Part shown: positions 2 to 18,568 of the stretch, in pieces | How the letters are laid out: each line of letters starts with the position of its first letter | How positions within the stretch are numbered: position 1 is the first letter of the stretch | IMG/VR virus record: IMGVR_UViG_3300036790_000204 | Coordinates: 42,103-106,102 of that record | Strand: one strand, 5' to 3' | Source: a virus | Taxonomy: Duplodnaviria > Heunggongvirae > Uroviricota > Caudoviricetes | Length of the DNA: 64,000 bases | Program-made: the position numbers and the translations under genes | Notes under the pieces: model-generated | Database searches by the model: none | What the model was told of the DNA's origin: nothing | What the model saw: the letters and a program-made list of their open reading frames with translations, nothing else

Positions 2-2497
2 GCCGGCGACGAAGCCGAAGGCGTCCGCGCGCTCAACGCGGTCAGCCATTCACTCGGCGGTCACGCCTACGCGACAGGCGACGCATCCCGCGAGGCCCGC
101 AGCTACTCCGATCGGATGCAAGGGCGGCACGGAGACCTTGAGCTCGCCGAGAAAGCCGGCAGGCTCGAAGCGGTTCACGCGGCAGCGCTCGGCCACGCCG
201 CACAGGCGAACACGCTGTACGACAACGCCAAGGCTGGCCGCGACGATGGCGACCACGAGTTCTCGCCCGGCTACCTGCGCGGCGAAGGCGCGACCGACGC
301 CGACGTCGCCGAGCTGTCACGGCGATACGAGATCATGCACGGCCGCAAGCCGACCGCCGCCGAGCTCGGTAAGATCCGCCGCGCCAAGCCCGCGGCTCAG
401 CCGGCGGGCAGCGCAGAGGCGGAGCACGCCGCCCGGGCGGGGATGATCGCGAAAGCCGGCGACGACAACGCGCACGCCATGAAGCGCATGATGGCGCTCG
501 CCCACGCCAAGCGAGTCCACGAAGCCGACAAGGCGCAGGGCGGCGGCCACCTGCCGCCCCTGGCGCTGCTCGGCAACGAGAAGCACGCGGACGGCAGCAT
601 GACCGCCAGCGCCGTCGACCACCTCGGCCGCGACTACACGGTCAAGCTCGGCGGCGACCGGAGCGTCACCGTCACCCACGAGGGCCGATCGCTGACCGGC
701 CCCGGGGGCGCCAACCCGACGCAGACGGCCCGCGAGCTGGCAGGGAAGCTGACCACGCCTGCCGCCCCGGCGGCGACCACGGCGGACGCCGACAAGTTCT
801 GGGCTGACGAGCCAGCACCCGCCCCCCCGGCGCCGCCGGCGCCGAAGCCGAAATACGAGCAGGGCGGCATGTTCGCCGAACCCGACAAACTTGGCACCGC
901 GCCGATGTTCGGCGACCAGTTCGGCACCAGCGGCATCACGGAGCCAGCGCCCGGATTGGCCGCGCCGGCCGGTCGCGGCACATCGGCACACGGGGACACC
1001 GCCGCGCACCTTCAGGGGCTCGATCCGCGCTACCGGTTCTCGTCTGCCCTGACAAGGGCTTCCGGCGGTCCCGGCAGCGACGACTACGGGAAAATGGTCA
1101 ATCTCGTCAACGGACTTAAGGAGCGCCCGGAGGACGCGGTGCCGCGCGCTCTCGCCCACGCCGAGACGGGCAGCCCGGCAGCCCTAACGCGCCGCGCGCA
1201 GCAGATCGAAGCGGTCACGGGCGCGCTCAACGGCATGCAGCACGACGCGCCGGCCCACCAGATCAGCGCAATGAACGAATACGCGCGGCAGCTCCGCGCC
1301 TCAGTCGGCGCCAAGGGCGCAGGAAAGACGACAGGCGATCCTGCGCACGCGGCGGAAATCCGTCAGCTCGCCGGCCGGGTCGACGGCGACAGCGCGCTCG
1401 AGCGCCGAACCAGAAGCCACCTTGAGGACGCCGCCACGGCGGTGGAAAAGGGAAACCGCAGCGACGCATACGGTCACCTTGACGCCGCCCGGCACGTCGC
1501 CTCCGGCGCAAACACCGCCAGCCACCCGGAAAGCCACCTGGTGACTGACACGGACGGCCACGGCGTCGTCCCCGCGATCGAAGGTCACATGCGCCGCGTG
1601 CCCTACGCCCCGGCCGATACCGCGGATATCGGGCGCGTCGGGCTGCTCGGCGGCCTCGCCCGCGACACCGAGAGTCTCTCTGGCGCGTCGCGCGCGCACA
1701 GCGAAGAAGGCGCTGCGCACCTGGCGACCGCAGCGGCCCACATGCGCGCCGGACGAGACGCCGAGGCATCTACGTCGCTCCGCGACGCCACAGGCGCGCT
1801 CGAGCGCGATTCGGTCGCCGCAGGAGCCGCCCGTGACGGCCAGAGGGCGGCGGGAAACGCAGCCAAGGCCGCAGGGCTGCGCGATGAGACGTCGGCGATC
1901 CTGAGCCGGCACACCGGCTCGGCCGACCACGCGAAGCACGTCGGCCAGGAGGCGAGCGCGGCCCACGCGGCGACCGCTCGCGGCATCGCCGCCGACGTCC
2001 GGATGGAACGGGGTCTCACGGCCGGGCAGCGGGAAGACGCCGAAACCAGCCTCCACGCGGCCGCCCGGCATCTCGAGGCGGGCAACCATGCGGAGGCGGC
2101 CCGCGAGCTCGACAACGCCACGCACGCCACGTCGCTGCGCGGCGGCGGCGTCATCAAGGGCTCCATTGCCGCTCGCGCCCGCGACCTGGCCAAGCGGATC
2201 CGCTCAGGCGAGCACAAGCATGTCGGCGCGGCCCGCGAGATGAAAGACCTCGGCTCGGCGATCGTGTCCCGCTGCGGACGCGAGCCGGATGTCCGCAGGC
2301 AGCTCGCGACCGCCACTGCGGCGCTCGAGGGCGGGGACCCTGCGGCCGCCTATGGTGCGCTTGACATGGCTCGCCGGTACGCGGTCGGCGAGCTCGGCGG
2401 CGACCCGGCGACCGCGCACCTGCAGGTGCTGCTCGCCGACGGCACCGAGGCATCCAAGGCGATCATCCGGTGGCGGGACGCGGTGCGGCAGGGCTGA
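2..2497 (+). CDS. hypothetical large Ala/His-rich repeat protein; N-terminus lies outside the window (frame open from nt 2)
   Basis: 793-aa ORF from M116, but the same frame is open back to nt 2. SHSLGG (GxSxG-like nucleophile elbow) at the window edge. About 35-aa His/Ala/Asp-rich repeats. A GAKGAGKT P-loop-like string is probably chance in a low-complexity region. Confidence 0.4.
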   Translation, partial: AGDEAEGVRALNAVSHSLGGHAYATGDASREARSYSDRMQGRHGDLELAEKAGRLEAVHAAALGHAAQANTLYDNAKAGRDDGDHEFSPGYLRGEGATDADVAELSRRYEIMHGRKPTAAELGKIRRAKPAAQPAGSAEAEHAARAGMIAKAGDDNAHAMKRMMALAHAKRVHEADKAQGGGHLPPLALLGNEKHADGSMTASAVDHLGRDYTVKLGGDRSVTVTHEGRSLTGPGGANPTQTARELAGKLTTPAAPAATTADADKFWADEPAPAPPAPPAPKPKYEQGGMFAEPDKLGTAPMFGDQFGTSGITEPAPGLAAPAGRGTSAHGDTAAHLQGLDPRYRFSSALTRASGGPGSDDYGKMVNLVNGLKERPEDAVPRALAHAETGSPAALTRRAQQIEAVTGALNGMQHDAPAHQISAMNEYARQLRASVGAKGAGKTTGDPAHAAEIRQLAGRVDGDSALERRTRSHLEDAATAVEKGNRSDAYGHLDAARHVASGANTASHPESHLVTDTDGHGVVPAIEGHMRRVPYAPADTADIGRVGLLGGLARDTESLSGASRAHSEEGAAHLATAAAHMRAGRDAEASTSLRDATGALERDSVAAGAARDGQRAAGNAAKAAGLRDETSAILSRHTGSADHAKHVGQEASAAHAATARGIAADVRMERGLTAGQREDAETSLHAAARHLEAGNHAEAARELDNATHATSLRGGGVIKGSIAARARDLAKRIRSGEHKHVGAAREMKDLGSAIVSRCGREPDVRRQLATATAALEGGDPAAAYGALDMARRYAVGELGGDPATAHLQVLLADGTEASKAIIRWRDAVRQG

Positions 2498-5400
2498 TGC
2501 TCATCAAGGCGGTACGCCGCGACGAGCACGGCGTCAGGCGGGTGGTGGCGTCGTGGAACCCGGACAGGCACCCGCGTGACCGGCACGGCCGGTTCATCAC
2601 GACCGGCCATGAGGTGCACCTGGCCGACGGGTCGACCGGGACAGTGGTGCGGGCGGTCGGCTCGAGCAGCATCGAGGTGCGCCACGCCGACGGGCACCTG
2701 CAGCGGGTCGCGGCGAACACGGTGTCCGTCACCGCGCCGAACGCCGCGGGCGCCCTCGAGGGGATCCGGTTCCCCGCGAACCGGAAACTGACCGTGACCC
2801 ACGGGCCCGGCGACACCCCTGTCATCGGGCACGTCACCAGCCACCGCGACCACCTCGCCGTCCAGCCGGCCCGCGGCGGCCCGGCCGTCTACATACCGCA
2901 CAGCTCCGTGAACCGCATCATGGAGAACCCCGGCCGCGACGGTCGCCCCGGCGCAGTCCGCTACGTGCGCCCCGGCTGGAATCCCGGCCGGCACGCCGAA
3001 CGGGACACGGCCGCGCAGGTCGACCAGGTCAGCGCCCGCGACCTGCAGCCCGGCGACCACGCGATGGTCCCGCACCCGCTGACCGGCGAACCCGCGCCGG
3101 GCACGATCGTCGACAAGCGGCTCGACGGCGACACCATCGAGCTTGACGTGCGCCGCGCCGACGGGTCGGTCGACACCGCGGCGATGGACCGCGACGCCGC
3201 CGTCGACAAGATCACCGGCGCCGGCGCCCCGGATGACTTCCCCGACGAGACCGACACGACCCCCGCCCCGGCCGCGCTCCCACCCGTCGCGGTGAAGCCG
3301 CTCCCAGCGGGCACCACGGTCGCACGGCCGGTGCTCTACACCTACCAGCGCCGGAAGATCACCGCCCTGAACCTCGACCGCGACCGGACACTGCCCGAAG
3401 ACCTCCGGCAGGCCGCCGCGCGGATCAGGCAGCGGCAGCCCCTGTCAGCCGGGCAGTCCGCGGCGCTCTCGGCCGAGCTCCGCGAACGCGCCCAAGCCCA
3501 TCCGTCGCCCGTGCAGACCCGGTCGCTCGAGCGCGCCGCATGGCGGCTCGACGCCGCCGCGGCCGAAGCCCACGGCCAGGTCATCCCCGAGCCCGGCATC
3601 GTCCCCGACCGGGCGGCCGAGGTCATGCCCGACGGCATCACCGAAGGCGACAGCATCGTCCTACCGGGCCCCGACGGCACCCTGACGGCGATGAAGGTCC
3701 GCGGGATCACCAGCATGATGGGCGGCCGGGTCCGCGTCCTCGACGTCGAGCACGACGACGGCACCATCGAGCAGCGCACCATCACCGGCCGCACCCGCGC
3801 GTGGCTGCTGCCCGACCGGCCCGACGACGAGCCCGTTGCCGCGCCCGGCCCGCGGCTCGAGCACATCACCCCCGACCAGCTGCGCCCAGGCGACACGATC
3901 CGCGTCAGCGAGGACCACGACGCCGACACCGACCAGGTGACCGGCGTCGAGCCGCTGGAACCCGGCGAGGCGCGGATCACCCTGGCCAGCGGCCAGACGC
4001 AGCTCTCCCAGTCCTACGACGGCGGCCCGAGCATCGTCCGCACCGCCCGCGGCGACGCCAGCGCCGGCCAGCCGTGGGACAGTCTCATGGCCGCCGAGCA
4101 CCCCGAGACCGGCGTCGGGCCGGCCGAGATCAGGGTCGGAGACCGGATCATCCACGGCACCGGCGCCTACGCCGTCACCGGCGCCGTCGTGGAGGCCGAC
4201 CCGCTCGACATCCCGGGCGCGAAAGAGCTGACGATCCGCGAAGACAACTCGTCCAACACCACCGTGCGGCTCTACCCCGGCGACACCGTGACGCGTCTCG
4301 TCAAGGCCGACGACAACGCAGCCGCGCGCATCGAGGAGGAGAAGCGGCGTCGGCTGGCCGACGCCGCGGTCAGCAGGATCAACTACGCGATCAGCGGCCT
4401 GCTGCAGGCCAGCCGCGACCGCGACCTGCGCATGGCGGGGAACTTCTACGGCCAGAGCCACGACGATCTAGCCGCCTCGATCAGCGCGATCCCGGCCGAA
4501 CGCGCGCTCGCCCGCATGGATTCCCACATCCGCATCCTGCAGAACGCGCTGATGCCGCCCGACGGCACACCCGAGACCGAGAGCGCGGCGGCGGAGGCTG
4601 CGCGTCGTCTCCTGCCCGCGATCGGCGAGCTGGCCGAACGGCAGCGCGCCGACGTGATCGCCTCCTTTAAGAACGCCGAGGACGGAATCGACCCGGCCGC
4701 GCTTGCCGACCGTCACGCGAGGGCCGACCCCGCCGGGCTGCTCGCGAGCGCCCGGTCGCGCGTCATGCGGCAGTGGCACGACACGCCGCCGCCGACCCCG
4801 TCAATGGCGGCCACCCGGGCGATCGCCGAGGCAGCCGCCGCGGTCAGGGGAACCGCCGTCGCCCCAGACGCAGCCGGCGACATCCCGAAGCCGCTCCCCG
4901 ACGGCGGCGCCCTGGCCGCCAGGATCCGCGCCTACCGGGCGCAGCTCCCCGCCGACGCCGCCGGGATCGGCAGGCAGTCCGTCACCCGCGCCGTGTTCGC
5001 GACCCCCCGCCTCGAAGACCTCGAGGCGGGTAAAGCGCCGGCGGTCGAGCTCGCCCAGGTGACCACGCCCGACCGCGCCCCGGACGGCGGACCCGGGGCG
5101 ATCGCGATGCGCCACCTCGACACCGTCATGGCCGCCGGGCGCGACCTTGACGCCGAACTGCAAGCGCGCATCGCCAAAGCGCCCATCCGGATCGAGACGC
5201 CGGAAGCCAAAGCAGAGCGGGACGAGCTTCGGAAAAAGTCAGTTGAAGCGGGCACAGCCGCTTTCCGCGCCTACCGCGCGTCGATGGACTCGTACGCCAA
5301 GGCGCACGGGTACATGTCCGCCATGATGCTGGAGCGGCAAGGGACGTCGGCGCAGTTGGCCGAGGCGCGCGAGCAGGCCACCAAAATCCGGGCCGAACGA

Positions 5401-6120
5401 GACCGAGAGCACGACGAGGCCCGGGCGCTTTACAAGGCGGCGCTCGCGGCCGCGCCCGACCCGAAGCAGTACGCGGACGCGCAGCGGCAGGCGGCGCTCG
5501 ACATCCTCGGCGAGGTGATCCCCGGCGGCATGGGCGGCATCGGCGCGCAGTACGTCGCCAGCGGGAGGAACGGCAAGCCCCTGACCGAGCGCGGCCAGCT
5601 TGTGCAGTCGATGCGGTGGGCCGAGCAGCATTACCCGGCGTCGTGGCTGAAAAAGTACCGGGAGCGCGCCAACTACCGGCTCGGCGACATCCAGCGCGGC
5701 CACTACGCCGACTCGACCAAGGAAATCCGCCTGTCGAAAGACACGGAGAAGGTGACGGGCGGCGGCGACCGCGGGCGCGTTGCGGTCCACGAGGCGGGAC
5801 ACGCTATGGAGTACGGCGTGCCCGGTATCCTCCCCCTCGAGGACGCCTATCTGTGGTCGCGGACGTCATCGGGCGACATCGGGTCGCGGACCCGCGAGAA
5901 GAAAGCGTCACTCGGCGCCGGGATGAGCGGCGAGCGCACTTACCGGGATGAGTTCCCCGAGCCGTACTCCGGCAAGGACTACCCGGGCGGCGGCAAAGAC
6001 GGCCTCTCGAGCGCCTACGAGCTGCTCACGACCGGTATGGAATCGCTGTTCGCCGGATCTGGCTACCTAGATCCTGGCTTCCGGCAGTGGCTTCTCGGTA
6101 CGCTTGCCCTGGTGAACTAG
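2497..6120 (+). CDS. large phage protein (about 1207 aa) with C-terminal HEXXH zincin-like metallopeptidase domain; N-terminal NPDRHPRDRHGRF motif
   Basis: ORF 2470..6120. The ATG at 2497 overlaps the upstream TGA (ATGA coupling). C-terminus has VAVHEAGHAMEYG and a Gly-rich tail. No Walker or portal motifs seen. Confidence 0.5.
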   Translation: MLIKAVRRDEHGVRRVVASWNPDRHPRDRHGRFITTGHEVHLADGSTGTVVRAVGSSSIEVRHADGHLQRVAANTVSVTAPNAAGALEGIRFPANRKLTVTHGPGDTPVIGHVTSHRDHLAVQPARGGPAVYIPHSSVNRIMENPGRDGRPGAVRYVRPGWNPGRHAERDTAAQVDQVSARDLQPGDHAMVPHPLTGEPAPGTIVDKRLDGDTIELDVRRADGSVDTAAMDRDAAVDKITGAGAPDDFPDETDTTPAPAALPPVAVKPLPAGTTVARPVLYTYQRRKITALNLDRDRTLPEDLRQAAARIRQRQPLSAGQSAALSAELRERAQAHPSPVQTRSLERAAWRLDAAAAEAHGQVIPEPGIVPDRAAEVMPDGITEGDSIVLPGPDGTLTAMKVRGITSMMGGRVRVLDVEHDDGTIEQRTITGRTRAWLLPDRPDDEPVAAPGPRLEHITPDQLRPGDTIRVSEDHDADTDQVTGVEPLEPGEARITLASGQTQLSQSYDGGPSIVRTARGDASAGQPWDSLMAAEHPETGVGPAEIRVGDRIIHGTGAYAVTGAVVEADPLDIPGAKELTIREDNSSNTTVRLYPGDTVTRLVKADDNAAARIEEEKRRRLADAAVSRINYAISGLLQASRDRDLRMAGNFYGQSHDDLAASISAIPAERALARMDSHIRILQNALMPPDGTPETESAAAEAARRLLPAIGELAERQRADVIASFKNAEDGIDPAALADRHARADPAGLLASARSRVMRQWHDTPPPTPSMAATRAIAEAAAAVRGTAVAPDAAGDIPKPLPDGGALAARIRAYRAQLPADAAGIGRQSVTRAVFATPRLEDLEAGKAPAVELAQVTTPDRAPDGGPGAIAMRHLDTVMAAGRDLDAELQARIAKAPIRIETPEAKAERDELRKKSVEAGTAAFRAYRASMDSYAKAHGYMSAMMLERQGTSAQLAEAREQATKIRAERDREHDEARALYKAALAAAPDPKQYADAQRQAALDILGEVIPGGMGGIGAQYVASGRNGKPLTERGQLVQSMRWAEQHYPASWLKKYRERANYRLGDIQRGHYADSTKEIRLSKDTEKVTGGGDRGRVAVHEAGHAMEYGVPGILPLEDAYLWSRTSSGDIGSRTREKKASLGAGMSGERTYRDEFPEPYSGKDYPGGGKDGLSSAYELLTTGMESLFAGSGYLDPGFRQWLLGTLALVN

Positions 6121-6137: not shown

Positions 6138-6437
6138 GTGTTCACGGTAGACGGGTACATCAACGGCGTTTCCTATCATGCCGTCGTCGGCGACGACACA
6201 TCGAACCGGCTCGGCCCGACTGTCGGCTGCGTCGCCGGCGACCCCGGCGTGCTGTCGCTGCTGCAGGAGCAGGAAGGGGAGCCGTGGGCGGCGACCCCGA
6301 CCGGCCCGTTCGGCGTCCTCGACCTGGCCGACCCGGCGTCGGTCCTCGGCGCGCTGAGCGACCACACGGACGTCACGTCCCTGACCGGCGACTACCCGGA
6401 TCTAGCCGGGCAGCCCGTCGCGGGCGTTGTCTACTGA
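6138..6437 (+). CDS. hypothetical protein
   Basis: ORF 6087..6437. A GTG with a GGGGGTGAG RBS lies just after the upstream stop. Confidence 0.3.
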   Translation: MFTVDGYINGVSYHAVVGDDTSNRLGPTVGCVAGDPGVLSLLQEQEGEPWAATPTGPFGVLDLADPASVLGALSDHTDVTSLTGDYPDLAGQPVAGVVY

Positions 6438-6729
6438 CCTGCGGCACCCTCCGCTCATCACCGCCGCGCTGTGGCCGCTCGACCTCAACTATGACCGGGG
6501 CATCGAGTGCGCTGCCTGCGGTGATGTCATCCTCATGGCGGACGGCGACGCCCCTTTCAGGTTCACCCCGGCCGCGCTGCTCGACGCCCTGACTGAGCAC
6601 GCCTGCGAGCGGAACACCGCGACGTTAGGCGCCGCCGGCGGCGACGCTAGCGCACATGCCGTCAGCCCGCGCCCGTTTCCGCGCCGTCCCACGGGCCGAG
6701 CCCGCGCAGGCGCCTGCCGCGGGCGATGA
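6427..6729 (+). CDS. hypothetical protein
   Basis: 100-aa ORF with overlapping stop and start. Confidence 0.25.
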   Translation: MSTDLRHPPLITAALWPLDLNYDRGIECAACGDVILMADGDAPFRFTPAALLDALTEHACERNTATLGAAGGDASAHAVSPRPFPRRPTGRARAGACRGR

Positions 6730-7411
6730 AGCCGACTGGCCGCACCCGCGGACCGGCGAGACCTGGCACGGCACCGTGACCGGCGTTTCGGGTGACGGGG
6801 CGCAGGTGGCGTGGCATTCCTACACCCGGCCCGGCGCCGACAAGACACTGCGGCCGATGCGGCACGCCAGCGCCGTGCCCGCGGCCGAGCTCAGCCGCCG
6901 GCCGGCCGGCCGCCCGGCCGAACGGAAAAGCGGCTACACCGGCCTGACTTCCCAGTCGGGCATGATCTCGCTCGACGTGCCGCCAGGCATCATGACCCCG
7001 GTGCCGGGCGGCGTGGACGAGCCGCCGCACGTCACCGTCGTGTACCTCGGCAAGAACCTCACAGACGACGCATGGGAGCAAGCGTGCGCGCGCGCCTCGC
7101 AGGCCGCCACCACGGCGCCGGGTCCGGTTGACGGGACGATCGGCGGACTCGGCGTGTTCCCGCCTGACGAGACCGGCAGCATGCCCGTGTTCGCCCACGC
7201 GCAGATCCCGGACGCGCACCCGATCCGCAAGCAGCTCGAGGACTTGTCGGCCTCGCAGCACCGTGAATGGCATCCGCACGTGACGATGACGTTCGCCAGC
7301 CCGGGCGACGTGCTGCCCGCCGCCCCGGATCCGACTCCCGTCACGTTCACCCACCTGTCCGCGCACCGCGGCGACGAGGTGCGCCGGTTCAAGCTCGGCG
7401 GCGGCCGGTGA
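6656..7411 (+). CDS. 2H phosphoesterase (LigT / Acb1-like 2',5' RNA ligase or cyclic-nucleotide phosphodiesterase family)
   Basis: Two H-x-T-x motifs (PHVTVVY and HPHVTMTF) about 80 aa apart. The core domain may start at the ATG near 6962 (150 aa), or at 6857. Confidence 0.6.
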   Translation: MPSARARFRAVPRAEPAQAPAAGDEADWPHPRTGETWHGTVTGVSGDGAQVAWHSYTRPGADKTLRPMRHASAVPAAELSRRPAGRPAERKSGYTGLTSQSGMISLDVPPGIMTPVPGGVDEPPHVTVVYLGKNLTDDAWEQACARASQAATTAPGPVDGTIGGLGVFPPDETGSMPVFAHAQIPDAHPIRKQLEDLSASQHREWHPHVTMTFASPGDVLPAAPDPTPVTFTHLSAHRGDEVRRFKLGGGR

Positions 7412-7460: not shown

Positions 7461-8309
7461 ATGAGCGACATCACCAGCACCCTGCAGGGACTCGGAGACG
7501 GCACGGTGACCACCGATCAGGCGACGGCAATGTTCGCGGCCCGGCAGTGGCCGGTGCGCCTCGCCCACCAGCCGCCGGCGCTGCCCGGCGACGACCTCGC
7601 CGAAGACGTCGCGGACGGCTCGTTCGGCGAGGTGCAGGCCGCCTACGCCGCCGGGTGGATCACCGACGAGCAGTACGCGCAGCTAGCCCAGGCCGCCGCG
7701 TCCGCAGGCGCCGTGACCGGCTTCGGGGGCGGCGACGGGCAGCAGGATGACCTGTTCGCCCCCGAGATGAAGGGAATCCCCCTCGCGAAGGGCTCGTATT
7801 GCGGGATGCCGGGCGGCGGCCGCGGCCGCATCACCGAGGTAGTGACCGAGGGGCAGGCGAAGGGCAGCGACGGCACCACCGCCGACAGCCCGGCCGCGGT
7901 GGTCGCGGTCTGGGAAAAGGGCGACGACGGCTGGTCCGCGACCGGGAAGACAACCGCGGTGAAGCTGTCGGCGCTGAAGGACATGCCGCCGCCGCGCCCG
8001 CTCGCAGGCGCCGGCGGCGAGTCCAAGGCGGCCGGGATACTCGAGGCACTCACCGGCCACGAGCTGCGCACCAGCGGGCAGCCGCCGTGGGCGCGCCCCG
8101 CGGCGTCCGCGGTCACCGCCGTGTACGAGCGCGGGACGGCCGCCTACCCGGGCGAGTCGAAGGCACTCATGCCCGCGCACGACTGGGCGATGGGCCGCGT
8201 CGGCGCGTTCCTCGGCCTCGCGGCCGGCGAGCAGACCGCCGGGTACGCCCGCGACCATGACCTGCTCCCCGAAGGCCACCCGGCCCGCGCCGGGACATGG
8301 GACGCCTGA
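7461..8309 (+). CDS. hypothetical protein
   Basis: 282-aa ORF with coding-like composition. Confidence 0.35.
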   Translation: MSDITSTLQGLGDGTVTTDQATAMFAARQWPVRLAHQPPALPGDDLAEDVADGSFGEVQAAYAAGWITDEQYAQLAQAAASAGAVTGFGGGDGQQDDLFAPEMKGIPLAKGSYCGMPGGGRGRITEVVTEGQAKGSDGTTADSPAAVVAVWEKGDDGWSATGKTTAVKLSALKDMPPPRPLAGAGGESKAAGILEALTGHELRTSGQPPWARPAASAVTAVYERGTAAYPGESKALMPAHDWAMGRVGAFLGLAAGEQTAGYARDHDLLPEGHPARAGTWDA

Positions 8310-8452
8310 TGCCCGTCTTCAACATGCTCGGCTGGCCGCTGATCATCCCCGACCAGCGTCCCCGCCGCCGACCGCAGCCCCTCGAAGGGAAGGGCCGCGG
8401 TATCACCAAGAGCCCCAAGCGCGCTAAGCGCAGAAACCGGAGAAAACCATGA
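8309..8452 (+). CDS. small basic protein (47 aa, MPVFNMLGWPLIIP...KRAKRRNRRKP)
   Basis: ATGA overlaps with both flanking genes. Not in the ORF table because it is under 60 aa. Confidence 0.25.
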   Translation: MPVFNMLGWPLIIPDQRPRRRPQPLEGKGRGITKSPKRAKRRNRRKP

Positions 8453-8856
8453 AGCCGACCCTAGGCGCGACCGTCATCTACAAGCTGTCCGAGCAGGACG
8501 CCGAGGACATCAACCGGCGCCGCGGCGACGCCGACGAGTTCCGCCGCACCCTCCCGCGCACCGAGGCGATCAGGTCCGGCTCGAGGGGCCGCAGCGGGCA
8601 CGTGATGCACTTCGGCAACCCCGCCGCCGCGGGCGACGAGCACCCGGCGCAGGTCGTGCGGCTGCCGTCGCCCGAGTGGGCCGAGCAGACGGCTGTCAAC
8701 CTGCAGGTGCACCTCGACGGCAATGACCTGCACTGGGCGCCGTCCCGCGGCCAGGGCACCGGTCACGGCGAGTGGCAGTGGCCGGCGCAGCCCGAGCAGG
8801 AGAACGCGGACGAGACCGCGTCGCACGTCCCGCATGTCGGTCCGGAGGGCGAGTAG
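8449..8856 (+). CDS. hypothetical protein
   Basis: 135-aa ORF, translationally coupled. Confidence 0.35.
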   Translation: MKPTLGATVIYKLSEQDAEDINRRRGDADEFRRTLPRTEAIRSGSRGRSGHVMHFGNPAAAGDEHPAQVVRLPSPEWAEQTAVNLQVHLDGNDLHWAPSRGQGTGHGEWQWPAQPEQENADETASHVPHVGPEGE

Positions 8857-9419: not shown

Positions 9420-9676
9420 AGATCATCGTCGCCGAGGCGCGGCAGTGGGACGGCTCCCTCGCGGCGGCCACGGATCTCATCGACTGGATCCTCGCCAGCG
9501 GCGGCACGGCGCGTTACCACGACGAAGGGCCGTCGGCGCTGAGCATCGACGTTCCCGCAGGCATCGCGACCGCAGTACCCGGCGACTGGATCATCATGGA
9601 CGACCAAGGCCAGTTCCGGCCGGTCGACGCGCGGGCCTACGAGCGGATGACGGCCGAGGTGCCCGGCACGCCGTGA
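9416..9676 (+). CDS. hypothetical protein
   Basis: The GTG at 9416 overlaps the upstream TGA. Confidence 0.3.
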   Translation: MKIIVAEARQWDGSLAAATDLIDWILASGGTARYHDEGPSALSIDVPAGIATAVPGDWIIMDDQGQFRPVDARAYERMTAEVPGTP

Positions 9677-9831: not shown

Positions 9832-9844
9832 GGATCAAATCGCA

Positions 9845-12819: not shown

Positions 12820-15800
12820 GTGGCGGGTAACACGGGCGAGGCGCGGACCGGCATCCCGGAGGGCCTCGAGTGGAAGGGCATAGGGTCGGGCAACGGCGGT
12901 CTGCTCGCCGCTGACGAGGCGACCGGCATCGTTGAGGCGATCGTCTCCGTGACCGGCATCGTGGATGAGGTCAAGGACATCATCGAGCCCGGCGCCTACG
13001 CGGAAACGCTGAGGCAGCGGACCCCCAAGGGCATCTCAGGCCACGACTGGGGGAAGCTCGCGGCCAAGACGCTCGACATCAAGGAGCTGCTGCCGGGCGA
13101 CCCGGCCCTGCCGAGGGAGACGCCGGACGGCAAGCCGTGGCCCGCCGCGGCGGGCGCCCTGTGGGTTAAGGCGCAGTACAACCTTGCCACCCAGATCGGC
13201 CGGGACTGCTTCGCGAACATCCAGTTTTTCGGGCCCGAGACGCAGTGGAGCATCGGATACGACGTCCCGGCCGGCAAGAGCGTAAGAGGACGGGACGGCA
13301 CCAGGCGCATCAAGGGCCTGCGGCTGTTCGAGTACTCCGACGTGCTGTTCGGGGCGGCGCCGCTCACCGGCACCCTGTCCGCGAAAGACGCGAAGCCGTC
13401 CGACGGCGACCCCGATAACGACCTCAACTCGTGGACGACCGACGACCCCGAGGACGCGATCACCCAGGAAGCCGACGCCGACGACCCCGACATGGCCGCG
13501 CTGCACGCCGCGGCGATCTCGGAGATGAACGCTCAGGCGCAGGGCTGGGACGCGATCGACGCCGCGAGCGCGATCAACGCCGGCGAGGAGGAGATCACCG
13601 ACGCGACCGCCGATGATCTGCAGGCCGCCGACCAGCGCCGCCAGGGCGCGACCGCGACGGCCGGGACCAAGGCGGCGGGGGGCGCCACCACGACGCCGGC
13701 CGGCGTGAGCGACACCCCGTGGTCGGACTTCACGGCGGCCGACTACACGCCGGCGCAGTGGCACAAGGCATGCCTGATCCACAACCACGCCCCGGGTGAG
13801 GTCCCCGACGAAAAAGGCGAGTGCCTCGCGCCGTGGACCCCGGTCCTGACTGCACGCGGCTGGCTCCGGGCGGACATGGTGAAGACGGGCGACTCCGTGC
13901 TCACCGCTGAAAAGACCTGGCGGCAAGTGACGCAATGCCACGTGCGCCACTATGCCGGCCCGCTGATGGGGGCAGGGGCAACCTGGCTCACGCCCACGCA
14001 CCCGGTCCTTACGTCAAACGGCTGGCTGCCCTTCGGGGCTGTCGATGCCGCTCAGGACGCCGTTTATGTGCTCCGCGAGATCCCTGACGCTCAGGGATTT
14101 GATGAACTTCTCATCAAGGCGCAGGAGGCGGTAGCCGCGCTTCTCGGCGAAGATCGCGAACTTGCGGTCGCGCTCGACACGTTCGGGCAGCGAATGCCAG
14201 TAGGTTCCGTCGGCCTCAATGGCAAGGGAGTAGGCCGGAACCCAAGCATCGGGGACGTAGCGTCCCATGGTCTTTTGCTTGACGTACTCGACACCAAGGA
14301 GATCGAGCGCGGCGTAGACCGCGACTTCGATGCTCGTCGGGTACTGGATAGCGTGGGTCCGAACGCGGTAGGTGGCACTGCAGCTCTGGGAGCAGAACTT
14401 CTTGCGCTCGGCGAGCGCGGGGATAACGTCGATGTCGACGCCGCATTCGAGGCACTGCCGTACCTCGCTGATCTTCGGACGCCCAAGCGGACGACTCGGG
14501 CCGTAGCAGGCGCTGGAGCAGAAGATGCGCTCGCGGTCGCCCCATGCCAGGGTCATCTCAGTGCCGCAGCCGGGGCAGCTCTTGATGACGGGGGCATGGA
14601 CGCCGCGTTTGCGCCAGACCAAGGCGCTCATGCACGTCTTGGAGCAGGTGCGCGCGTAGGTGCCCGTCACGCGGGCACCACAGACCTCGCAAGCCTTGAG
14701 ATTGGGCTTGGCCGACCCCTTTGCTCGGACTCTGCTGTAACGGCAGTCGGTGGAGCAGTAGACACGCTCCGACCCCACGGCGACCGTGAAGGCACCGCCG
14801 CAGGCGGCGCAAGTCTTGGATATCTCTCGCGAGACCCCTTTGGGACCGCGCCCGCGCTTGTCCCAGGCGAGGCGCACGGTACAGGCGCGCGAACAGGTCT
14901 TGCCCCACATGCCGTTAAAGCAGCGGCTTATGAAATCGGCACCGCAGACGACACAAGTGAAATCGCGTTCCGGCATGATGGAATTATATCCATTGGCTAT
15001 GACGGGCCGGTTTACAACTACGAAGTCGAAACCGACCATTCGTATTTTGCCGGTATTCTCGCCGTCCACAACTGCAAGCTGCCAGTGCGCCAGCCGGACG
15101 GCCGCGTCAACGTCAACGGCGTCCACGCCGCCGCCGGGGTTCTCGCCGGCGCCCGCGGCGGGGTGAACGCGACTGCGGGGCAGAAGCGGATTGCGGCCGC
15201 GCAGCTCCGAGGCCTGTACCGGAAGATCGGCGACACCCCGCCGTCGTCCCTGCAGGCGAAGGTGCTTACCTCGGCCGACGTGACCGGCACCCCGCCGACC
15301 GGGCCGTCGGGCCCGATCCAGCTCCGCGCCCGCCTCGACGGATGGGCCGGGGGCGACCCGGCCGACTACTCGACCGCGCAGTGGCACGACGCGACCCTGA
15401 TCCACAACCACCCCGACGGGATGATGCCGACGGACAAGGGCGACTGCTCGCTGCCCGTGTGCACCCCCGACGGGGCGCTGTCGTCGCAGGGGATGCACGC
15501 CGCCGCGGGGGCGCTCGGCAGCGGCGACCTCGACGCGACCGACGACCAGAAAACGCAGGCCGCCACGGCGCTGCTCATGCTGTTTCGCCGCACCGGTGAG
15601 GCTCCCCCCCCGATTCAGGTCAAGGTCGCCGGGCAGGACGTCACCCCGGCCGACGCGCGCGCCACCCAGCGGCTCAAAGACTGGTACGTGCACGGCGGCG
15701 GCGCCGCGCAGATCGGGTGGGGCGTCGCCGGCGACTTCGACAAGTGCGTTGCGATCGCCGGGAAGCACATGGACCCCGCGAAGGCTAAGGGGTACTGCCA

Positions 15801-16668
15801 GCTGCGCCACAAGGACGCGACCGGGTTCTACGCCGGCCACGCGCCGAGCGAGGAACTAGCCCACGGCGCCGCCGCGGCGATCACCGACGGCACCAAGGCC
15901 GCTGGCATCAACCTCTCCGGCGGGTATAACCCGGCGCTCGAGACCGGCCCCTACGCCGGATGGCGGTCGCCTGAGACGAAAGACATCGGCGACGCCGGCG
16001 ACATGCCCGGGTCGATCGAGGAAACCCTCGACAACGTGTCCGACGCGGTCACCGCGGCGCTCGGCGGCAGCGACACCACCACCGGCGGCCTGCCCAGGTG
16101 GATCGTCACCGTGAACGGCACGTGGCCCGATCATGTGATCGCGACCCGCTACGACACCACCGGCGACCTAGACGACGGCGAGTCGTTCAGCATCGCCTAC
16201 ACCACCGACCCGGACACCGGCGACGTCACCCTAGGCGAGCAGACCCCCGTCACGCTCACCGTCGTGGCCGAGCCCAGCGACGGAACCAAGAGCATCGGCG
16301 ACGGCGAGCGCCTGTCAGCCGTCCCCATCCTCGTCGAGTACGTGGCCGGATTCGTCCGCCGCGGCCTGCAGGTCAAGCAGGGCCGCGTGCTGTCGGAGGT
16401 GAACGGGAAGCTGCTCCGCGGCGCCGTCAGCCAGCTCATCGCCGTGCTGAACGCCGCCGGCATCCCGCTCGACACCCCGCCCGACGACCAGCCCGACCAG
16501 CAGGACCAGGCGCTGGCCACCACCGGCGCCGAGCCGCTGTATCTGCCCGACTCGACCGCGCCGGGCGCGCAGGTCGTGGAAGGCAAGTCGCTGGTCGGCC
16601 CGCGGGACATGGCCCGTCAGCTCCGCATCACCGCAGCCGCGTATGGCGCCGACGGGGATGCCGAGTAG
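12820..16668 (+). CDS. prohead (HK97-family S78) protease fused to a scaffold-like acidic region and a repeat-containing C-terminal polyprotein; contains an intein
   Basis: GTG start. The N-terminal 190 aa match HK97 prohead protease blocks (IVEAIVSVTGIVD..EPGAY, GHDW, WSIGYD, FEYSDVLFGAAP), followed by an acidic region. Tandem repeats AQWH.A.LIHNHP.G..P.[DE]KG[DE]C.LPV. The intein interrupts the first repeat. Confidence 0.6.
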   Translation: MAGNTGEARTGIPEGLEWKGIGSGNGGLLAADEATGIVEAIVSVTGIVDEVKDIIEPGAYAETLRQRTPKGISGHDWGKLAAKTLDIKELLPGDPALPRETPDGKPWPAAAGALWVKAQYNLATQIGRDCFANIQFFGPETQWSIGYDVPAGKSVRGRDGTRRIKGLRLFEYSDVLFGAAPLTGTLSAKDAKPSDGDPDNDLNSWTTDDPEDAITQEADADDPDMAALHAAAISEMNAQAQGWDAIDAASAINAGEEEITDATADDLQAADQRRQGATATAGTKAAGGATTTPAGVSDTPWSDFTAADYTPAQWHKACLIHNHAPGEVPDEKGECLAPWTPVLTARGWLRADMVKTGDSVLTAEKTWRQVTQCHVRHYAGPLMGAGATWLTPTHPVLTSNGWLPFGAVDAAQDAVYVLREIPDAQGFDELLIKAQEAVAALLGEDRELAVALDTFGQRMPVGSVGLNGKGVGRNPSIGDVASHGLLLDVLDTKEIERGVDRDFDARRVLDSVGPNAVGGTAALGAELLALGERGDNVDVDAAFEALPYLADLRTPKRTTRAVAGAGAEDALAVAPCQGHLSAAAGAALDDGGMDAAFAPDQGAHARLGAGARVGARHAGTTDLASLEIGLGRPLCSDSAVTAVGGAVDTLRPHGDREGTAAGGASLGYLSRDPFGTAPALVPGEAHGTGARTGLAPHAVKAAAYEIGTADDTSEIAFRHDGIISIGYDGPVYNYEVETDHSYFAGILAVHNCKLPVRQPDGRVNVNGVHAAAGVLAGARGGVNATAGQKRIAAAQLRGLYRKIGDTPPSSLQAKVLTSADVTGTPPTGPSGPIQLRARLDGWAGGDPADYSTAQWHDATLIHNHPDGMMPTDKGDCSLPVCTPDGALSSQGMHAAAGALGSGDLDATDDQKTQAATALLMLFRRTGEAPPPIQVKVAGQDVTPADARATQRLKDWYVHGGGAAQIGWGVAGDFDKCVAIAGKHMDPAKAKGYCQLRHKDATGFYAGHAPSEELAHGAAAAITDGTKAAGINLSGGYNPALETGPYAGWRSPETKDIGDAGDMPGSIEETLDNVSDAVTAALGGSDTTTGGLPRWIVTVNGTWPDHVIATRYDTTGDLDDGESFSIAYTTDPDTGDVTLGEQTPVTLTVVAEPSDGTKSIGDGERLSAVPILVEYVAGFVRRGLQVKQGRVLSEVNGKLLRGAVSQLIAVLNAAGIPLDTPPDDQPDQQDQALATTGAEPLYLPDSTAPGAQVVEGKSLVGPRDMARQLRITAAAYGADGDAE
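14014..14976 (-). CDS. zinc-ribbon-repeat + Vsr/DUF559-like (PD-(D/E)xK) endonuclease, encoded antisense and entirely inside the intein
   Basis: Part of the 608-aa minus ORF. From M289 (MPERDF) it has five or six CxxC..C..C ribbons, then AIEADGTYWH...ERVERDRKFAIFAEKRGYRLLRLDE (Vsr-like). The upstream 288 aa are an extein-antisense artefact. An alternative ATG lies near 15039. Confidence 0.5.
   Translation of the reverse strand: MPERDFTCVVCGADFISRCFNGMWGKTCSRACTVRLAWDKRGRGPKGVSREISKTCAACGGAFTVAVGSERVYCSTDCRYSRVRAKGSAKPNLKACEVCGARVTGTYARTCSKTCMSALVWRKRGVHAPVIKSCPGCGTEMTLAWGDRERIFCSSACYGPSRPLGRPKISEVRQCLECGVDIDVIPALAERKKFCSQSCSATYRVRTHAIQYPTSIEVAVYAALDLLGVEYVKQKTMGRYVPDAWVPAYSLAIEADGTYWHSLPERVERDRKFAIFAEKRGYRLLRLDEKFIKSLSVRDLAEHINGVLSGIDSPEGQPAV
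14983..14988 (-). promoter_or_regulatory. TATAAT -10 box about 6 nt upstream of the nested endonuclease ATG (candidate leaderless promoter)
   Basis: AT-rich patch ggaattatatcc in an otherwise GC-rich ORF. Its reverse complement gives TATAAT-tccatc-ATG. Confidence 0.25.
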
Positions 16669-17227: not shown

Positions 17228-18568
17228 ATGCCCGGGAGGGGCAACATGCCGAACACCGTAGACCGCGCCCGAATCCGCGAGCTCACCAGCCAGCTCCAGA
17301 CCAAGGCCACCGAGCTCGACCGGCTCGCCGACACCTGGCAGGACGAGACCGGCAACGGGCACCTCGTCATCAGCACCGAGCAGAAGGACGCCTACCAGCG
17401 GGTCCTCGGCGAGGCCGAGGAGATCAAGACCCTGCTGCGTTTCGAGGAAGGCCGCGGGCAGCTCCACGAGTTCCTCAGCGCCCCCGCGGGCAGCCCGCTC
17501 GCCGCGTCGGAGGCCGCCGCGATGGGCGTCGGCTACTCGCAGAAGTCGCTCGGCCAGATGTACATCGAGAGCGCCCAGTACGGGGAGCTCAAGCAGGGCG
17601 GCTTCGACATCCGCCGGCTTCCCGGCGCGTTCGAGAGCGGCATGGGCATCGCCCAGCTCGAGCGCAAGGACGTCTATTCCAACATGGCGGGCAACATCGC
17701 CATCCCGGCGCTCGGTACCCCGCAGAACGTCGGCCTCACCCCGCGGCAGCTGCGCCCCGGCCGGGTGCGTGACCTGTTCCCGCAGGACACCACGACCGCG
17801 AACATGCTCTACGGCATCCGCGAGACCGGGTTCACCAACAACGCCGCCCCGGTCGAGGAGCGCGTCGCGGCGAACGGCGGCCCCGCCACCGGCGGCGCGA
17901 CCGACGTGTACAGCACCAAGCCGCACTCGAACATCAGCATCGTCCCCGTGCAGTACCCGGTCAGCACGATCGCCCACTGGATCAACGTCCACAAGAACAC
18001 CCTCGCCGACGAGCCCCGCATGATGGGCCTGATCGACCGTGACCTCATGGACGGCGTGAAGCTGGCCGAGGACTGGCAGATCATGTACGGCGACGGCCAG
18101 GGCGACCACATCACCGGCATCTGCAACACGCCCGGCCTGCAGGAGTACGCCGGAAGCACCATCTCCGACGACCCGCAGACCGCGCAGATCCGCCGGGCGA
18201 TCACCCGCGTGTTCCTGGCCTACTACCAAGCCAGCGGCGTGGTCGTCCACCCGATGGACTGGGAGTCCCTCGAGCTCGAGCGCGACAATTACGGGCAGTA
18301 CCGGCTCGCGATCTCGGTCGCGATGGGCGCCCAGAAGGTCGTCTGGCGGCTCGACGTCGCCGAGACGGTCGCGATCGCGCAGGGCACGTTCCTGACCGGC
18401 GCGTTCGGGCTCGGCGCGAAGCTGTACGACCGGCAGGCCGTCTCGGTGGCCGTGAGCACGGAGAACGGCTCGAACTTCATCCAGAACGTCTGCACCGTTT
18501 TGGCTGAGGAAAGGGTCGCCCTAGAAGTGTCCCGGCCGGAGTCTTTCGTGCTGGGAACCTTCGCCTAG
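17228..18568 (+). CDS. major capsid protein (HK97 fold)
   Basis: Follows the protease. N-terminal coiled-coil delta-like region. Alternative ATG at 17246 with a GGAGG RBS. The conserved upstream motif lies before it, and strong hairpins follow it. Confidence 0.7.
   Translation: MPGRGNMPNTVDRARIRELTSQLQTKATELDRLADTWQDETGNGHLVISTEQKDAYQRVLGEAEEIKTLLRFEEGRGQLHEFLSAPAGSPLAASEAAAMGVGYSQKSLGQMYIESAQYGELKQGGFDIRRLPGAFESGMGIAQLERKDVYSNMAGNIAIPALGTPQNVGLTPRQLRPGRVRDLFPQDTTTANMLYGIRETGFTNNAAPVEERVAANGGPATGGATDVYSTKPHSNISIVPVQYPVSTIAHWINVHKNTLADEPRMMGLIDRDLMDGVKLAEDWQIMYGDGQGDHITGICNTPGLQEYAGSTISDDPQTAQIRRAITRVFLAYYQASGVVVHPMDWESLELERDNYGQYRLAISVAMGAQKVVWRLDVAETVAIAQGTFLTGAFGLGAKLYDRQAVSVAVSTENGSNFIQNVCTVLAEERVALEVSRPESFVLGTFA

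Follow-up and report, generated by a model that had tools for sequence, protein, structure and literature searches.

The window, i.e. the whole stretch of 64,000 nt analysed here, comes from an uncultured high-GC phage and carries a gene for a 2H phosphoesterase with the following features and neighbours.

2..2497, + strand: last 831 codons of a giant protein that continues past the left edge of the window (no stop codon between nt 2 and 116).
2470..6120, + strand: 1216-aa protein; its translation shows repeats of a small beta unit and, at the C-terminus, a HEAGH (zincin-like) motif.
6427..6729, + strand: 100-aa ORF that overlaps the start of the 2H gene by 74 nt; GC3 in its own frame 0.85-0.88 to ~6680.
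6656..7411 including the stop codon, + strand: complete gene for the 2H phosphoesterase, 251 aa (from the ORF, GC3 and a PF13563 match above the gathering score).
6656..6958, + strand: N-terminal extension of the 2H protein, aa 1-101 (from AF2 secondary structure, pLDDT, dN/dS and conservation of the junction).
6959..7402, + strand: 2H catalytic core, aa 102-249, beginning G-M-I-S-L-D.
7028..7039, + strand: motif 1 of the core, H125-V-T127-V.
7277..7288, + strand: motif 2 of the core, H208-V-T210-M.
7461..8309, + strand: 282-aa protein, GC3 0.93.
12820..16668, + strand: 1282-aa prohead protease fusion (phrog_80, head maturation protease, E 4.5e-16).
17228..18568, + strand: HK97-type major capsid protein (PF05065, E 4.4e-31; phrog_10, E 8.4e-37).

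In the 2H gene frame, GC3 is 0.85-0.95 from ~6700 onward, and the homologue in the syntenic locus L091 (P0001, L091:17510-18259), which is 94% identical, has its 5' end at the identical position. Moreover, codons 1-100 differ from those of L091 by 13 synonymous and nine non-synonymous changes, giving a rough dN/dS of ~0.26; the corresponding rough value for the 2H core is ~0.11. Thus, the ATG at 6962, from which an earlier note on this DNA had started a minimal core of ~150 aa, is unlikely to be the start codon, and we conclude that the 100-codon N-terminal extension is coding and under purifying selection.

In the AF2 model of the extension, aa 1-28 and aa 69-93 are disordered, while aa 36-67 form a small three-strand beta unit; no targeting motif was recognisable in the extension. 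It ends in the junction S-G-Y-T-G-L-T-S-Q-S-G immediately before the 2H core, and the pattern G-Y-x-L-x-x-R-S-G at this junction is kept in solo as well as in fused homologues. Residues 21-53 resemble aa 193-225 of the neighbouring 1216-aa protein with 8 bits, which is too weak to treat the extension as kin of the repeats in that protein. The 74-nt overlap with the upstream ORF recurs in L091, where the two ORFs (17281-17583 and 17510-18259) were called as two genes; fusion of 6427-6729 with the 2H ORF by programmed frameshifting would need a +1 shift, and we found no evidence for it.

The window protein matches PF13563 with 31.7 bits against a gathering score of 27 (E 1.8e-07). H125, T127, H208 and T210, the residues of the two H-x-T-x motifs on which the earlier note had based its assignment to the 2H enzymes, are invariant across 60 homologues and again in a 40-sequence alignment of the core; in 34 large fusion proteins, the H and T of motif 1 and the H of motif 2 are invariant, and the T of motif 2 is nearly so. 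In the 2H superfamily, each half of the duplicated fold contributes one H-x-T/S-x motif. The invariance of the four residues together with the dN/dS of the core suggests selection on catalysis. Residues conserved specifically in this family are D196, S198, S200, H202, H233, H237 and R238. Searches of PDB sequences with the single protein and with a 60-sequence profile returned nothing at E<=10, and the link to solved structures is via fold comparison only. By this comparison a 2H fold was found, and the nearest solved structures are RNA 2',3'-cyclic phosphodiesterases and not signal-degrading enzymes: ThpR/LigT of E. coli (4qak/5ldm), the CPDase of D. radiodurans (5h7f) and PH0099 (1vgj), all at 19-20% identity. 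Unlike ThpR/LigT, the window clade is phage-only in distribution and fused to virion proteins. The viral and cellular 2',5'-phosphodiesterases (C-terminal domain of rotavirus VP3, coronavirus ns2 and AKAP7/AKAP18) and the poxvirus cGAMP PDE align at 11-17% identity with no sequence-level match, and belong to a eukaryotic-virus clade unlike the window protein. Within the literature library searched, no paper turned up on the phosphodiesterase of Burkholderia phage BCSR5 (PDB 9q2y). In total, the gene product is almost certainly a 2H enzyme, and its HxT/HxT tetrad is intact.

The 2H gene follows two giant proteins and precedes the prohead protease and major capsid genes. The portal gene lies outside the window; in L091, a Pfam portal gene is found upstream, and the order is a 557-aa ORF, Phage_portal, several small genes (one with a TIG domain), genes for proteins of 1117 aa, 1207 aa, 98 aa and 100 aa, the 2H gene (249 aa) and a 282-aa gene. 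The earlier note had placed the gene among early small genes; with the prohead protease and the HK97-type capsid gene downstream and the portal gene upstream in L091, it instead lies in the head module. Likewise, the 2H domain is encoded between portal/MuF and capsid genes in L001-L003 and in ~20 IMG/VR loci. The 2H domain is not always encoded in a head module, because in L004 a minimal 173-aa relative is encoded in a replication module alongside PolA, RecA and WhiB.

The first ORF of the window, to which the 1117-aa protein P0061 is 81% identical, was considered as a portal; it has no Pfam, PHROG or PDB match and no similarity to the portal of the cultured Gordonia phage Dexdert, and it is a different giant protein; in L091, the portal lies further upstream. 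The 1216-aa protein has a 1207-aa homologue at the corresponding place in L091, a weak match to phrog_19443 ('minor head protein', E 0.0014) and, in Pfam, only weak matches under the curated cutoffs (E 0.09-0.9). Because a PHROG match at E about 1e-3 with no similarity to Dexdert MuF is too thin a basis for the name 'MuF-like', we refer to it by its size and HEAGH motif. The prohead protease fusion scores 19.5 bits for Peptidase_S78, slightly under the cut-off of 21. The 282-aa protein downstream of the 2H gene has no family match, and neither this gene nor the other window neighbours matched the ~290-aa C-terminal extensions of portal-2H fusions by phmmer at 1e-3.

The clade around the window protein comprises 169 clusters at E<=1e-30. 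Among the best 150 clusters, the median length is 672 aa, with 93 members longer than 500 aa and only 21 of 260 aa or less, a distribution at odds with the Acb1-like size that the earlier note had emphasised. The closest relatives, whose cores are 50-66% identical, very often carry the domain behind a portal domain, joined to MuF or within polyvalent proteins. Portal and 2H domains are joined in L007, L012 and L038, portal, 2H and MuF in L011, and an Arr ADP-ribosyltransferase (ART) and 2H in L028 and L057, with NUDIX in addition in L028. Furthermore, the 924-aa protein P0063 carries PF13563 and PF03496 (ART) inside a homologue of the first giant protein of the window; over the 2H segment, identity to the window core is 60%. 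In 34 large family members, we counted NUDIX (17), Phage_portal (12), Arr-ms (11), Mu_F (5) and GNAT (4), with zeta toxin and ParB_N in single members; polyvalent relatives carry NUDIX, ADP-ribosyltransferase, GNAT or zeta-kinase domains besides the 2H domain. IMG/VR yielded 88 matches and 185,579 species genomes yielded one; the clade is essentially phage-only. Very probably, the window protein belongs to this clade of 2H domains from head modules and polyvalent proteins, and the best explanation of the gene is that it represents the stand-alone form of a 2H domain built into the head modules of actinobacterial phages.

In ~25 homologues, [IVL][ST][GAE]Q[AMLV] motifs flank the 2H core; they do not occur in the window protein. 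We rejected these motifs as general prohead-protease sites: within L001-L003, hardly any occur outside the 2H protein, and the capsid, portal and MuF proteins have none.

Megablast and tblastn searches against GenBank phages (50,697 phage records in tblastn) gave nothing at 1e-3. At E<=10, tblastn gave sub-significant matches only, to actinophage genes mostly annotated 'RNA ligase', one of which was backed by hhalign. This name, the usual SEA-PHAGES label, was inherited from the name of the Pfam family and does not reflect a tested activity. The Gordonia phage proteins so named are Dexdert gp18 (945 aa), GTE6 orf18 (951 aa), GMA6 orf12 (325 aa) and GMA2 Orf10 (883 aa). They share with the window protein a homologous 2H core that starts in G-G-M-I and ends in P-L-G, and are likewise encoded between the MuF/portal genes and the major capsid gene (in Dexdert: portal, MuF, gp18 with the 2H domain, capsid); the core alignment to Dexdert gp18 reached 96% probability over 148 columns in hhalign. 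They differ in that identity is ~27-31%, with tblastn E of 0.1-8, and in that the domain is mostly embedded in proteins of ~900 aa.

GMA2 Orf10 was found by mass spectrometry in purified virions, and one of the Orf10 peptides, SEVGDYDAYTPHITAVTGQQAR (aa 825-846), covers HxT motif 2 in the 2H domain at the C-terminus (PMC4524720 Table S5). By contrast, the 2H homologues GTE6 orf18 and GMA6 orf12 are absent from the virion mass-spectrometry table in the same paper, which counts against packaging. GMA2 Orf10, a structural match in BFVD, is only distant kin of the window protein, with an hhalign probability of 14% and Pfam matches under the gathering score. GMA2 is a cultured system in which packaging is testable. 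The GMA2 peptide across the 2H motif has apparently not been interpreted as evidence for a packaged 2H domain.

MuF- and portal-fused 2H domains and their solo counterparts were predicted to be head-packaged by Iyer et al. in 2017 (PMC5512222) and 2022 (PMC9503650), who saw no such domain linked to an RNA ligase and proposed RNase activity or degradation of nucleotide signals (PMC5512222, PMC9503650). The window protein is another member of this class, itself a computational prediction: it shares with the class the superfamily, the head-module context among head-morphogenesis (late) genes and the partners of its relatives (portal, MuF, ART, NUDIX, zeta kinase and ParB), with fusions to portal, MuF and polyvalent proteins in its clade. 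Among the ~50 window ORFs scanned, no linked RNA ligase was found. The window protein differs from the class in that the domain is a separate gene of 251 aa with an N-terminal extension of its own. Because the gene lies in the head-assembly block and its clade is usually fused to portal, head or effector proteins, it is probable that the 2H protein travels in the virion and is injected. Physical packaging, as suggested by gene position and the fusions, is the outcome we would favour, although the window protein itself is unfused, which counts against it.

As a whole, the explanation that we consider best, with a probability of roughly 0.4, is that the window gene encodes a solo head-module 2H enzyme that would be delivered by the virion and act on a host immune signal. 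Expression would be late, and the protein would enter the procapsid, perhaps by means of the 100-residue N-terminal extension, and would be ejected into the cell along with the DNA, as are T4 Alt and MuF-fused effectors. T4 Alt, a head-packaged ADP-ribosyltransferase that enters the cell with the DNA (PMC5512222), would be alike in delivery route only, its fold and chemistry being unrelated to 2H. Inside the host, acid-base catalysis by the two His-Thr pairs, with no metal needed, would then cleave either a ribose-linked phosphodiester or a 2',3'-cyclic phosphate. The target might be cyclic oligonucleotides or 2'-5'-linked oligoadenylates of the CBASS or type III CRISPR type, and the enzyme would then act like Acb1 or the viral 2',5'-phosphodiesterases, from a different 2H clade. 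A host nucleotide immune signal is our best guess for the substrate, a tentative one: the RNA phosphodiesterases among the nearest structures count against it, and nothing in the sequence of the window protein points to a pocket for cyclic oligonucleotides.

Phages counter the nucleotide signalling of CBASS, Pycsar, Thoeris and type III CRISPR with enzymes and sponges. To our knowledge, all characterised anti-signalling enzymes and sponges are made after the onset of infection, and a capsid-borne 2H enzyme active from time zero would change the view of the timing of the signalling race between phage and host. In a portal fusion, there would be twelve copies per virion, one for each subunit of the dodecameric portal. 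It is somewhat doubtful that the capsid-carried clade in its entirety (portal, MuF/polyvalent fusions and solo forms) is injected to destroy cyclic-oligonucleotide or 2'-5' messengers before phage expression; if true, it would represent the first virion-delivered anti-signalling enzyme and an independently evolved mechanistic parallel of Acb1, with the NUDIX and ART domains co-delivered as a counter-defence kit.

A rather unlikely alternative is that the enzyme heals RNA ends: after cleavage of tRNA or mRNA by metal-independent host RNases (anticodon nucleases, HEPN/toxin RNases), it would open the resulting 2',3'-cyclic phosphates and so contribute to RNA repair by the phage. The same genome indeed encodes, at 50186-51004, a Thg1-like enzyme of tRNA repair (a 3'-5' polymerase), which favours this alternative; however, it is 43 kb from the 2H gene, which lies in the head module. 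Moreover, no tRNA genes were found in the window, and no RNA ligase, polynucleotide kinase, RtcB or KptA was found among the ~50 window ORFs scanned, a scan that took in small ORFs only in part and a window that is perhaps part of the genome. At the family level, the window protein falls short of the LigT-type enzymes that the earlier note had brought up: it scores 14.7 bits against the cut-off of 65.7 for the ThpR equivalog TIGR02258 and 19.2 bits against 23.3 for PF02834, with an hhalign probability of 5% to E. coli ThpR. Finally, Iyer et al. (PMC5512222) never saw such 2H domains with RNA ligases, and fusions to portal, MuF and polyvalent proteins would be unusual for repair enzymes.

If the protein is injected, it could also be an RNase of the Usb1/Mpn1 type that leaves 2',3'-cyclic ends and attacks host transcripts or CRISPR RNAs upon DNA entry. 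We consider this improbable: Usb1 is among the structural neighbours, but at 6-15% identity in structural alignments there is no specific similarity, its presence there reflects the generic fold, and no RNA-binding domain was recognised. Still less probable is a role in ADP-ribose chemistry, in which the enzyme would open ADP-ribose 1'',2''-cyclic phosphate or degrade a soluble signal derived from ADP-ribose. The ART and NUDIX domains to which the 2H domain is often fused share this arena; however, the partners are heterogeneous (Arr, VIP2-like ART, NUDIX, GNAT, zeta kinase, ParB_N, portal and MuF), as expected of independent effectors strung together and not of one pathway, and the scanned window ORFs yielded no ART, NUDIX or KptA.

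Acb1 has a flexible C-terminal lid (aa 145-152) with W147 over the ligand, and an aromatic clamp formed by Y12, W74 and F107. T4 Acb1 ends in LKLDWADDLK; the window protein ends in G-G-G-R, five residues past the last strand (aa 241-246) and with no Trp there, i.e. its sequence and AF2 model are without the lid. As a ligase-less phage 2H enzyme that degrades CBASS signals (PMC9117128), Acb1 (T4 gp57B and its counterpart in Erwinia phage FBB1; PF23474) resembles the window protein in being phage-encoded and in its HxT/HxT tetrad, and, as a phosphodiesterase of immune signals, it offers a plausible functional analogy. In PMC9117128, Acb1 proteins are recognised by BLAST-level similarity to phage Acb1 proteins; the window protein has no match to PF23474 at E<=1, and hhalign to T4 Acb1 aligned 14 columns with 26% probability. 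By sequence, the window protein is not a member of the Acb1 family. It is therefore very improbable that the gene encodes a minimal, early Acb1 orthologue that degrades CBASS or Pycsar signals, as the earlier note would have it if taken literally: all family-level Acb1 tests failed, the gene has 251 codons and lies in the head module, and none of the 2H enzymes is known to target Pycsar signals; Apyc1, the known enzyme against Pycsar, is described among the MBL phosphodiesterases (PMC9117128). In total, the identification as a 2H phosphoesterase stood, while its description as minimal, early, Acb1-sized and anti-Pycsar was not supported.

Equally improbable is a structural or scaffolding component of the head with a 2H fold that is no longer catalytic, for which the head-module position and the annotation of some relatives as 'capsid maturation protease' or 'capsid morphogenesis protein' would speak, and against which stand the conservation of the tetrad in the homologues and fusions and the low dN/dS of the core.

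With respect to the virion-delivered 2H enzyme that we favour, the window adds a compact solo member of soluble size to the clade. Because it is compact, has an intact active site and has close relatives in fused form, the protein is convenient for expression, substrate profiling and virion proteomics. From the viewpoint of genome annotation, the locus is otherwise ordinary, i.e. a 2H domain in an actinophage head module.

The open reading frame (ORF) at 6656-7411 (+) encodes 251 residues and carries both motifs of a 2H enzyme, read from the sequence as follows:

7028-7039 (+), H125-V-T127-V of motif 1 (EPPHVTVVYLG)
7277-7288 (+), H208-V-T210-M of motif 2 (WHPHVTMTF)

In a six-frame motif scan of the whole window, covering 190 segments of 150 aa or more without a stop, this ORF alone had two H-h-T-h motifs 60-100 residues apart, and in a Pfam scan it exceeded the gathering score of PF13563 (2_5_RNA_ligase2; 31.7 bits, gathering score 27). 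Because the motif pair is unique in the window and PF13563 is above gathering, the two HxT motifs reported in the earlier note are real rather than a chance occurrence. The two histidines are 83 residues apart, compared to 82 in E. coli ThpR and 69 in T4 Acb1.

An AF2 model, built from an input alignment of 60 sequences, has a core at aa 101-249 with pLDDT >90, preceded by a small three-strand unit at aa 36-67 (pLDDT 57-72 as 10-residue block means) and disordered segments at aa 1-28 and 69-93. While a sequence search of the PDB detected nothing for the 2H protein, Foldseek against the PDB matched almost exclusively 2H enzymes, with D. radiodurans CPDase at the top (E 2.5e-5), followed by E. 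coli LigT, TT0787, the rotavirus VP3 C-terminal domain and Usb1; Acb1 (7t27) came at rank 36 (E 2.6e-3). The structure comparison listing gave 15.1 for CPDase (5h7f), 14.1 for PH0099, 13.4 for both LigT and YjcG, 13.0 for Usb1, 11.5 for AKAP18, 11.0 for VP3, 10.6 for the penguinpox cGAMP PDE and 9.7 for Acb1 of two phages. We conclude from the model that the window protein is a bona fide 2H enzyme, and that the shapes closest to it are those of bacterial and archaeal RNA cyclic phosphodiesterases.

The kinship with Acb1 proposed earlier did not hold. The Acb1 family PF23474 was absent from the Pfam matches of the protein at E<=1, and hhalign of the family alignment against T4 Acb1 aligned just 14 residues around motif 2. 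Moreover, in Acb1 a Trp-bearing C-terminal lid closes over cGAMP (PMC9117128); this lid has no counterpart in the window protein because the latter stops five residues past its last strand. Membership of the ThpR family was similarly rejected: TIGR02258 (ThpR) scored 14.7 bits (cut-off 65.7), PF02834 scored 19.2 bits (cut-off 23.3) and hhalign against ThpR gave 5% probability.

In the window, which has a G+C content of 66-75%, GC3 of the 2H frame is 0.85-0.95 from ~6700 to the stop codon. In the syntenic relative L091, a 65.7-kb contig, the 2H gene begins at the same start, and the 2H proteins are 94% identical, compared to 81% for the big neighbour. Between window and L091, codons 1-100 have 13 synonymous and 9 non-synonymous changes (rough dN/dS 0.26; core, rough 0.11). 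In total, GC3, the L091 start and dN/dS point to ATG 6656 rather than ATG 6962 as the start codon, and the 'minimal' enzyme of ~150 aa gives way to one of 251 aa. The 2H start overlaps a 100-aa ORF upstream over 74 nt, an overlap also present in the gene calls of L091. A junction before the core (6929-6976, aa 92-107), G-Y-x-L-x-x-R-S-G-M-I-S-L-D, is common to solo, extended and portal-embedded forms; its Met is invariant in homologues and is the start codon of minimal forms. The protein may be processed at this junction, or the junction may be the retained start of a cassette.

The 2H gene has the following surroundings:

2-2497 (+), first giant ORF, truncated by the left window edge; its relative has 1117 aa
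2470-6120 (+), second giant ORF, 1216 aa, with a C-terminal HEAGH zincin-like motif
12820-16668 (+), prohead-protease fusion, 1282 aa (phrog_80 E 4.5e-16; Peptidase_S78 just under cut-off)
downstream of the protease fusion, HK97-type major capsid protein (PF05065 E 4.4e-31)

Nine same-strand ORFs without assigned function, one of which matches a PHROG family of unknown function, lie between the 2H gene and the protease. The gene order in L091 is a 557-aa ORF, Phage_portal (836 aa), small genes (one with a TIG domain), 1117-aa, 1207-aa, 98-aa and 100-aa genes, the 2H gene (249 aa) and a 282-aa gene. Based on the annotated flanking genes in the window and the L091 order, the 2H gene is inside a head-morphogenesis block, with the portal on one side and protease and capsid on the other, and not among early small genes as first described.

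A small beta unit with the pattern G-D-x-I/V ... G-x-V is repeated in the 1216-aa protein, with at least five copies; no Pfam family reached threshold in this protein and its matches to PHROG 'minor head protein' were weak only. In the 1282-aa protein, the protease is the N-terminal part, and weak Hint/Vint matches at aa 335-403 suggest that an intein or Hint-type autoprocessing domain may be present.

Homologues of the 2H core numbered 59 in a 5.8-billion-protein collection (identity 45-66%) and 88 in IMG/VR, while 185,579 species genomes contained a single locus with such a homologue, on a Streptosporangiaceae MAG contig. Searching 1.84 billion cluster representatives with the profile gave 2150 matches at E<=1e-3, 725 at 1e-10 and 169 at 1e-30. 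The best 150 matches had a median length of 672 aa; 93 exceeded 500 aa, 47 exceeded 1000 aa and just 21 had 260 aa or fewer. Pfam scans run directly on the enclosing ORFs revealed portal-2H (loci L007, L012 and, with an intein, L038), portal-2H-MuF (L011), Arr-type ART ... NUDIX-2H at the C-terminus of a 2066-aa protein (L028) and Arr ... 2H (L057). Among 34 large members, the partner domains were NUDIX (17), Phage_portal (12), Arr-ms (11), Mu_F (5) and GNAT (4), with zeta toxin, ParB_N, GDSL lipase and Hint once each.

The closest case is P0063, a 924-aa homologue of the first giant ORF that has a 2H domain inserted near its N-terminus (60% identity to the window core, sharing the DLSASQH variant) and an ADPrib_exo_Tox ART near its C-terminus. 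The Ala-/His-rich helical giant protein (window 2-2497, its 1117-aa homologue P0061, and P0063) looks like a carrier for effector domains. Separate, extended 2H genes are again located between portal/MuF and capsid in L001-L003 and ~20 further IMG/VR loci; a minimal 173-aa form (L004), by contrast, accompanies PolA, RecA and WhiB in a replication module. Short [IVL]-[ST]-[GAE]-Q-[AMLV] motifs (MxITEQA at residue 3, ITGQALDLA, VSAQM, ISGQA) flank the 2H core and partner domains in ~25 of 60 homologues (P0007-P0041); in L001 and L002 they are almost restricted to the 2H protein.

The best structural matches in BFVD were actinophage proteins, many called 'RNA ligase' and many of 500-1100 aa, and included a 'capsid morphogenesis protein' and a 'putative structural protein' of Gordonia phage GMA2. 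The gene order of Gordonia phage Dexdert is portal, gp15, MuF, gp17, gp18 ('RNA ligase', 945 aa), two small genes and major capsid; hhalign matched our family alignment to gp18 residues 417-573 (96% probability, 148 columns). In GMA6 and GTE6, PF13563 'RNA ligase' genes adjoin portal/MuF and VIP2-type ART genes (Dyson et al. 2015, PMC4524720). Mass spectrometry of purified GMA2 virions detected Orf10 (883 aa) at 29.4% coverage, with the peptide SEVGDYDAYTPHITAVTGQQAR listed; the virion table does not list GTE6 orf18 or GMA6 orf12 (PMC4524720). In our mapping, the peptide corresponds to Orf10 aa 825-846 and spans the second HxT motif of the 2H domain at the C-terminus. By hhalign (149 columns, 14% probability) and by Pfam matches to Acb1 (19.6 bits) and PF13563 that are both below gathering score, Orf10 is only a distant relative. 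Even so, it shows that an actinophage head-module 2H domain can physically occur in the particle. Orf10 (7981-10632 of the GMA2 genome, L090) is labelled merely 'putative structural protein' in GenBank.

2H domains in polyvalent proteins and in MuF and portal fusions, together with solo counterparts, have been described, and RNA ligases were never seen associated with them; they were proposed to be packaged in the head and to be RNases or enzymes that break down defence signals, either 2'-5' oligoadenylate or cyclic nucleotides (Iyer et al. 2017, PMC5512222). This prediction was later restated, with soluble ADP-ribose derivatives added as possible targets (Iyer et al. 2022, PMC9503650). The window gene shares with this class a clade fused to portal, MuF and polyvalent proteins and a head-module location, and fits the class in both features; among the roughly 50 window ORFs scanned, no ligase was seen. 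No GenBank phage matched the window phage in nucleotide or protein sequence. The class was already known from computational prediction, and what is new is a solo member from an uncultured high-GC phage.

Sequence comparisons establish that the HxT/HxT tetrad is invariant and under strong purifying selection, and that the same 2H clade is fused to virion proteins and effector domains. In portal fusions, the 2H domain is C-terminal to the portal domain; given the known topology of phage portals, we infer that the 2H domain of these fusions would be directed towards the capsid interior. We propose that the 2H protein would be synthesised late, enter the procapsid, possibly via its N-terminal extension, be ejected together with the DNA and then cleave a ribose phosphodiester or cyclic phosphate independently of metal.

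As substrate we tentatively rank immune nucleotide messengers first (probability roughly 0.35-0.4) because, to our knowledge, all ligase-less 2H enzymes of viruses with a characterised activity (Acb1, ns2, VP3, poxvirus cGAMP PDE) degrade such messengers and time-zero delivery would suit this activity. Healing of RNA 2',3'-cyclic ends, ranked second, is unlikely but supported by the RNA cyclic phosphodiesterases being the nearest structures and by a Thg1-like tRNA repair enzyme encoded in the same genome. The window has no tRNA genes, and the ORFs scanned in it yielded neither an RNA ligase, RtcB, polynucleotide kinase or KptA nor an ART or NUDIX. After these two readings come an injected RNase, which we consider improbable, and ADP-ribose-cyclic-phosphate chemistry, which is more improbable still; a non-catalytic role is very hard to credit. 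Altogether, the 2H fold of the earlier note stands, while its size, genomic setting and Acb1 kinship do not. The significance of the 2H gene is moderate, and would rise sharply with proof that virions deliver an anti-signalling activity.

Elsewhere, the window encodes a tail tube, tape measure, Dit, beta-helix fibres, recombinases, a Thg1-like protein, DpdA and homing endonucleases. DpdA (20889-21803 (+); PF23859 E 1.2e-80), a 7-deazaguanine DNA transglycosylase, is inside the structural block, with the capsid gene on one side and the tail genes on the other, and the phage probably modifies its own DNA. The structural module contains two inserted ORFs resembling HNH_3 homing endonucleases, at 18713-19906 (+) after the capsid gene and at 27174-28466 (+) after the tail tube gene. 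A 235-aa ORF (23649-24356 (+)) matches Phage_Mu_F at 27.9 bits, just under the gathering score of 29.6; its position downstream of the capsid gene is unusual for a MuF-type protein.

The Thg1-like protein (50186-51004 (+); PF04446 E 1.8e-22, and Thg1C PF14413) is of the type of 3'-5' nucleotide-adding enzymes of tRNA 5'-end repair; a search of the open-access literature found no paper on phage-encoded Thg1-like proteins. Its gene adjoins recombinase genes and is flanked by a serine recombinase (48219-49868 (-); Resolvase and Recombinase domains) and a tyrosine recombinase (51609-52340 (+)), the latter followed by an Endonuclease VII ORF (52343-52948). The recombinases and Endonuclease VII around the Thg1-like gene suggest a temperate lifestyle or a mobile insertion.
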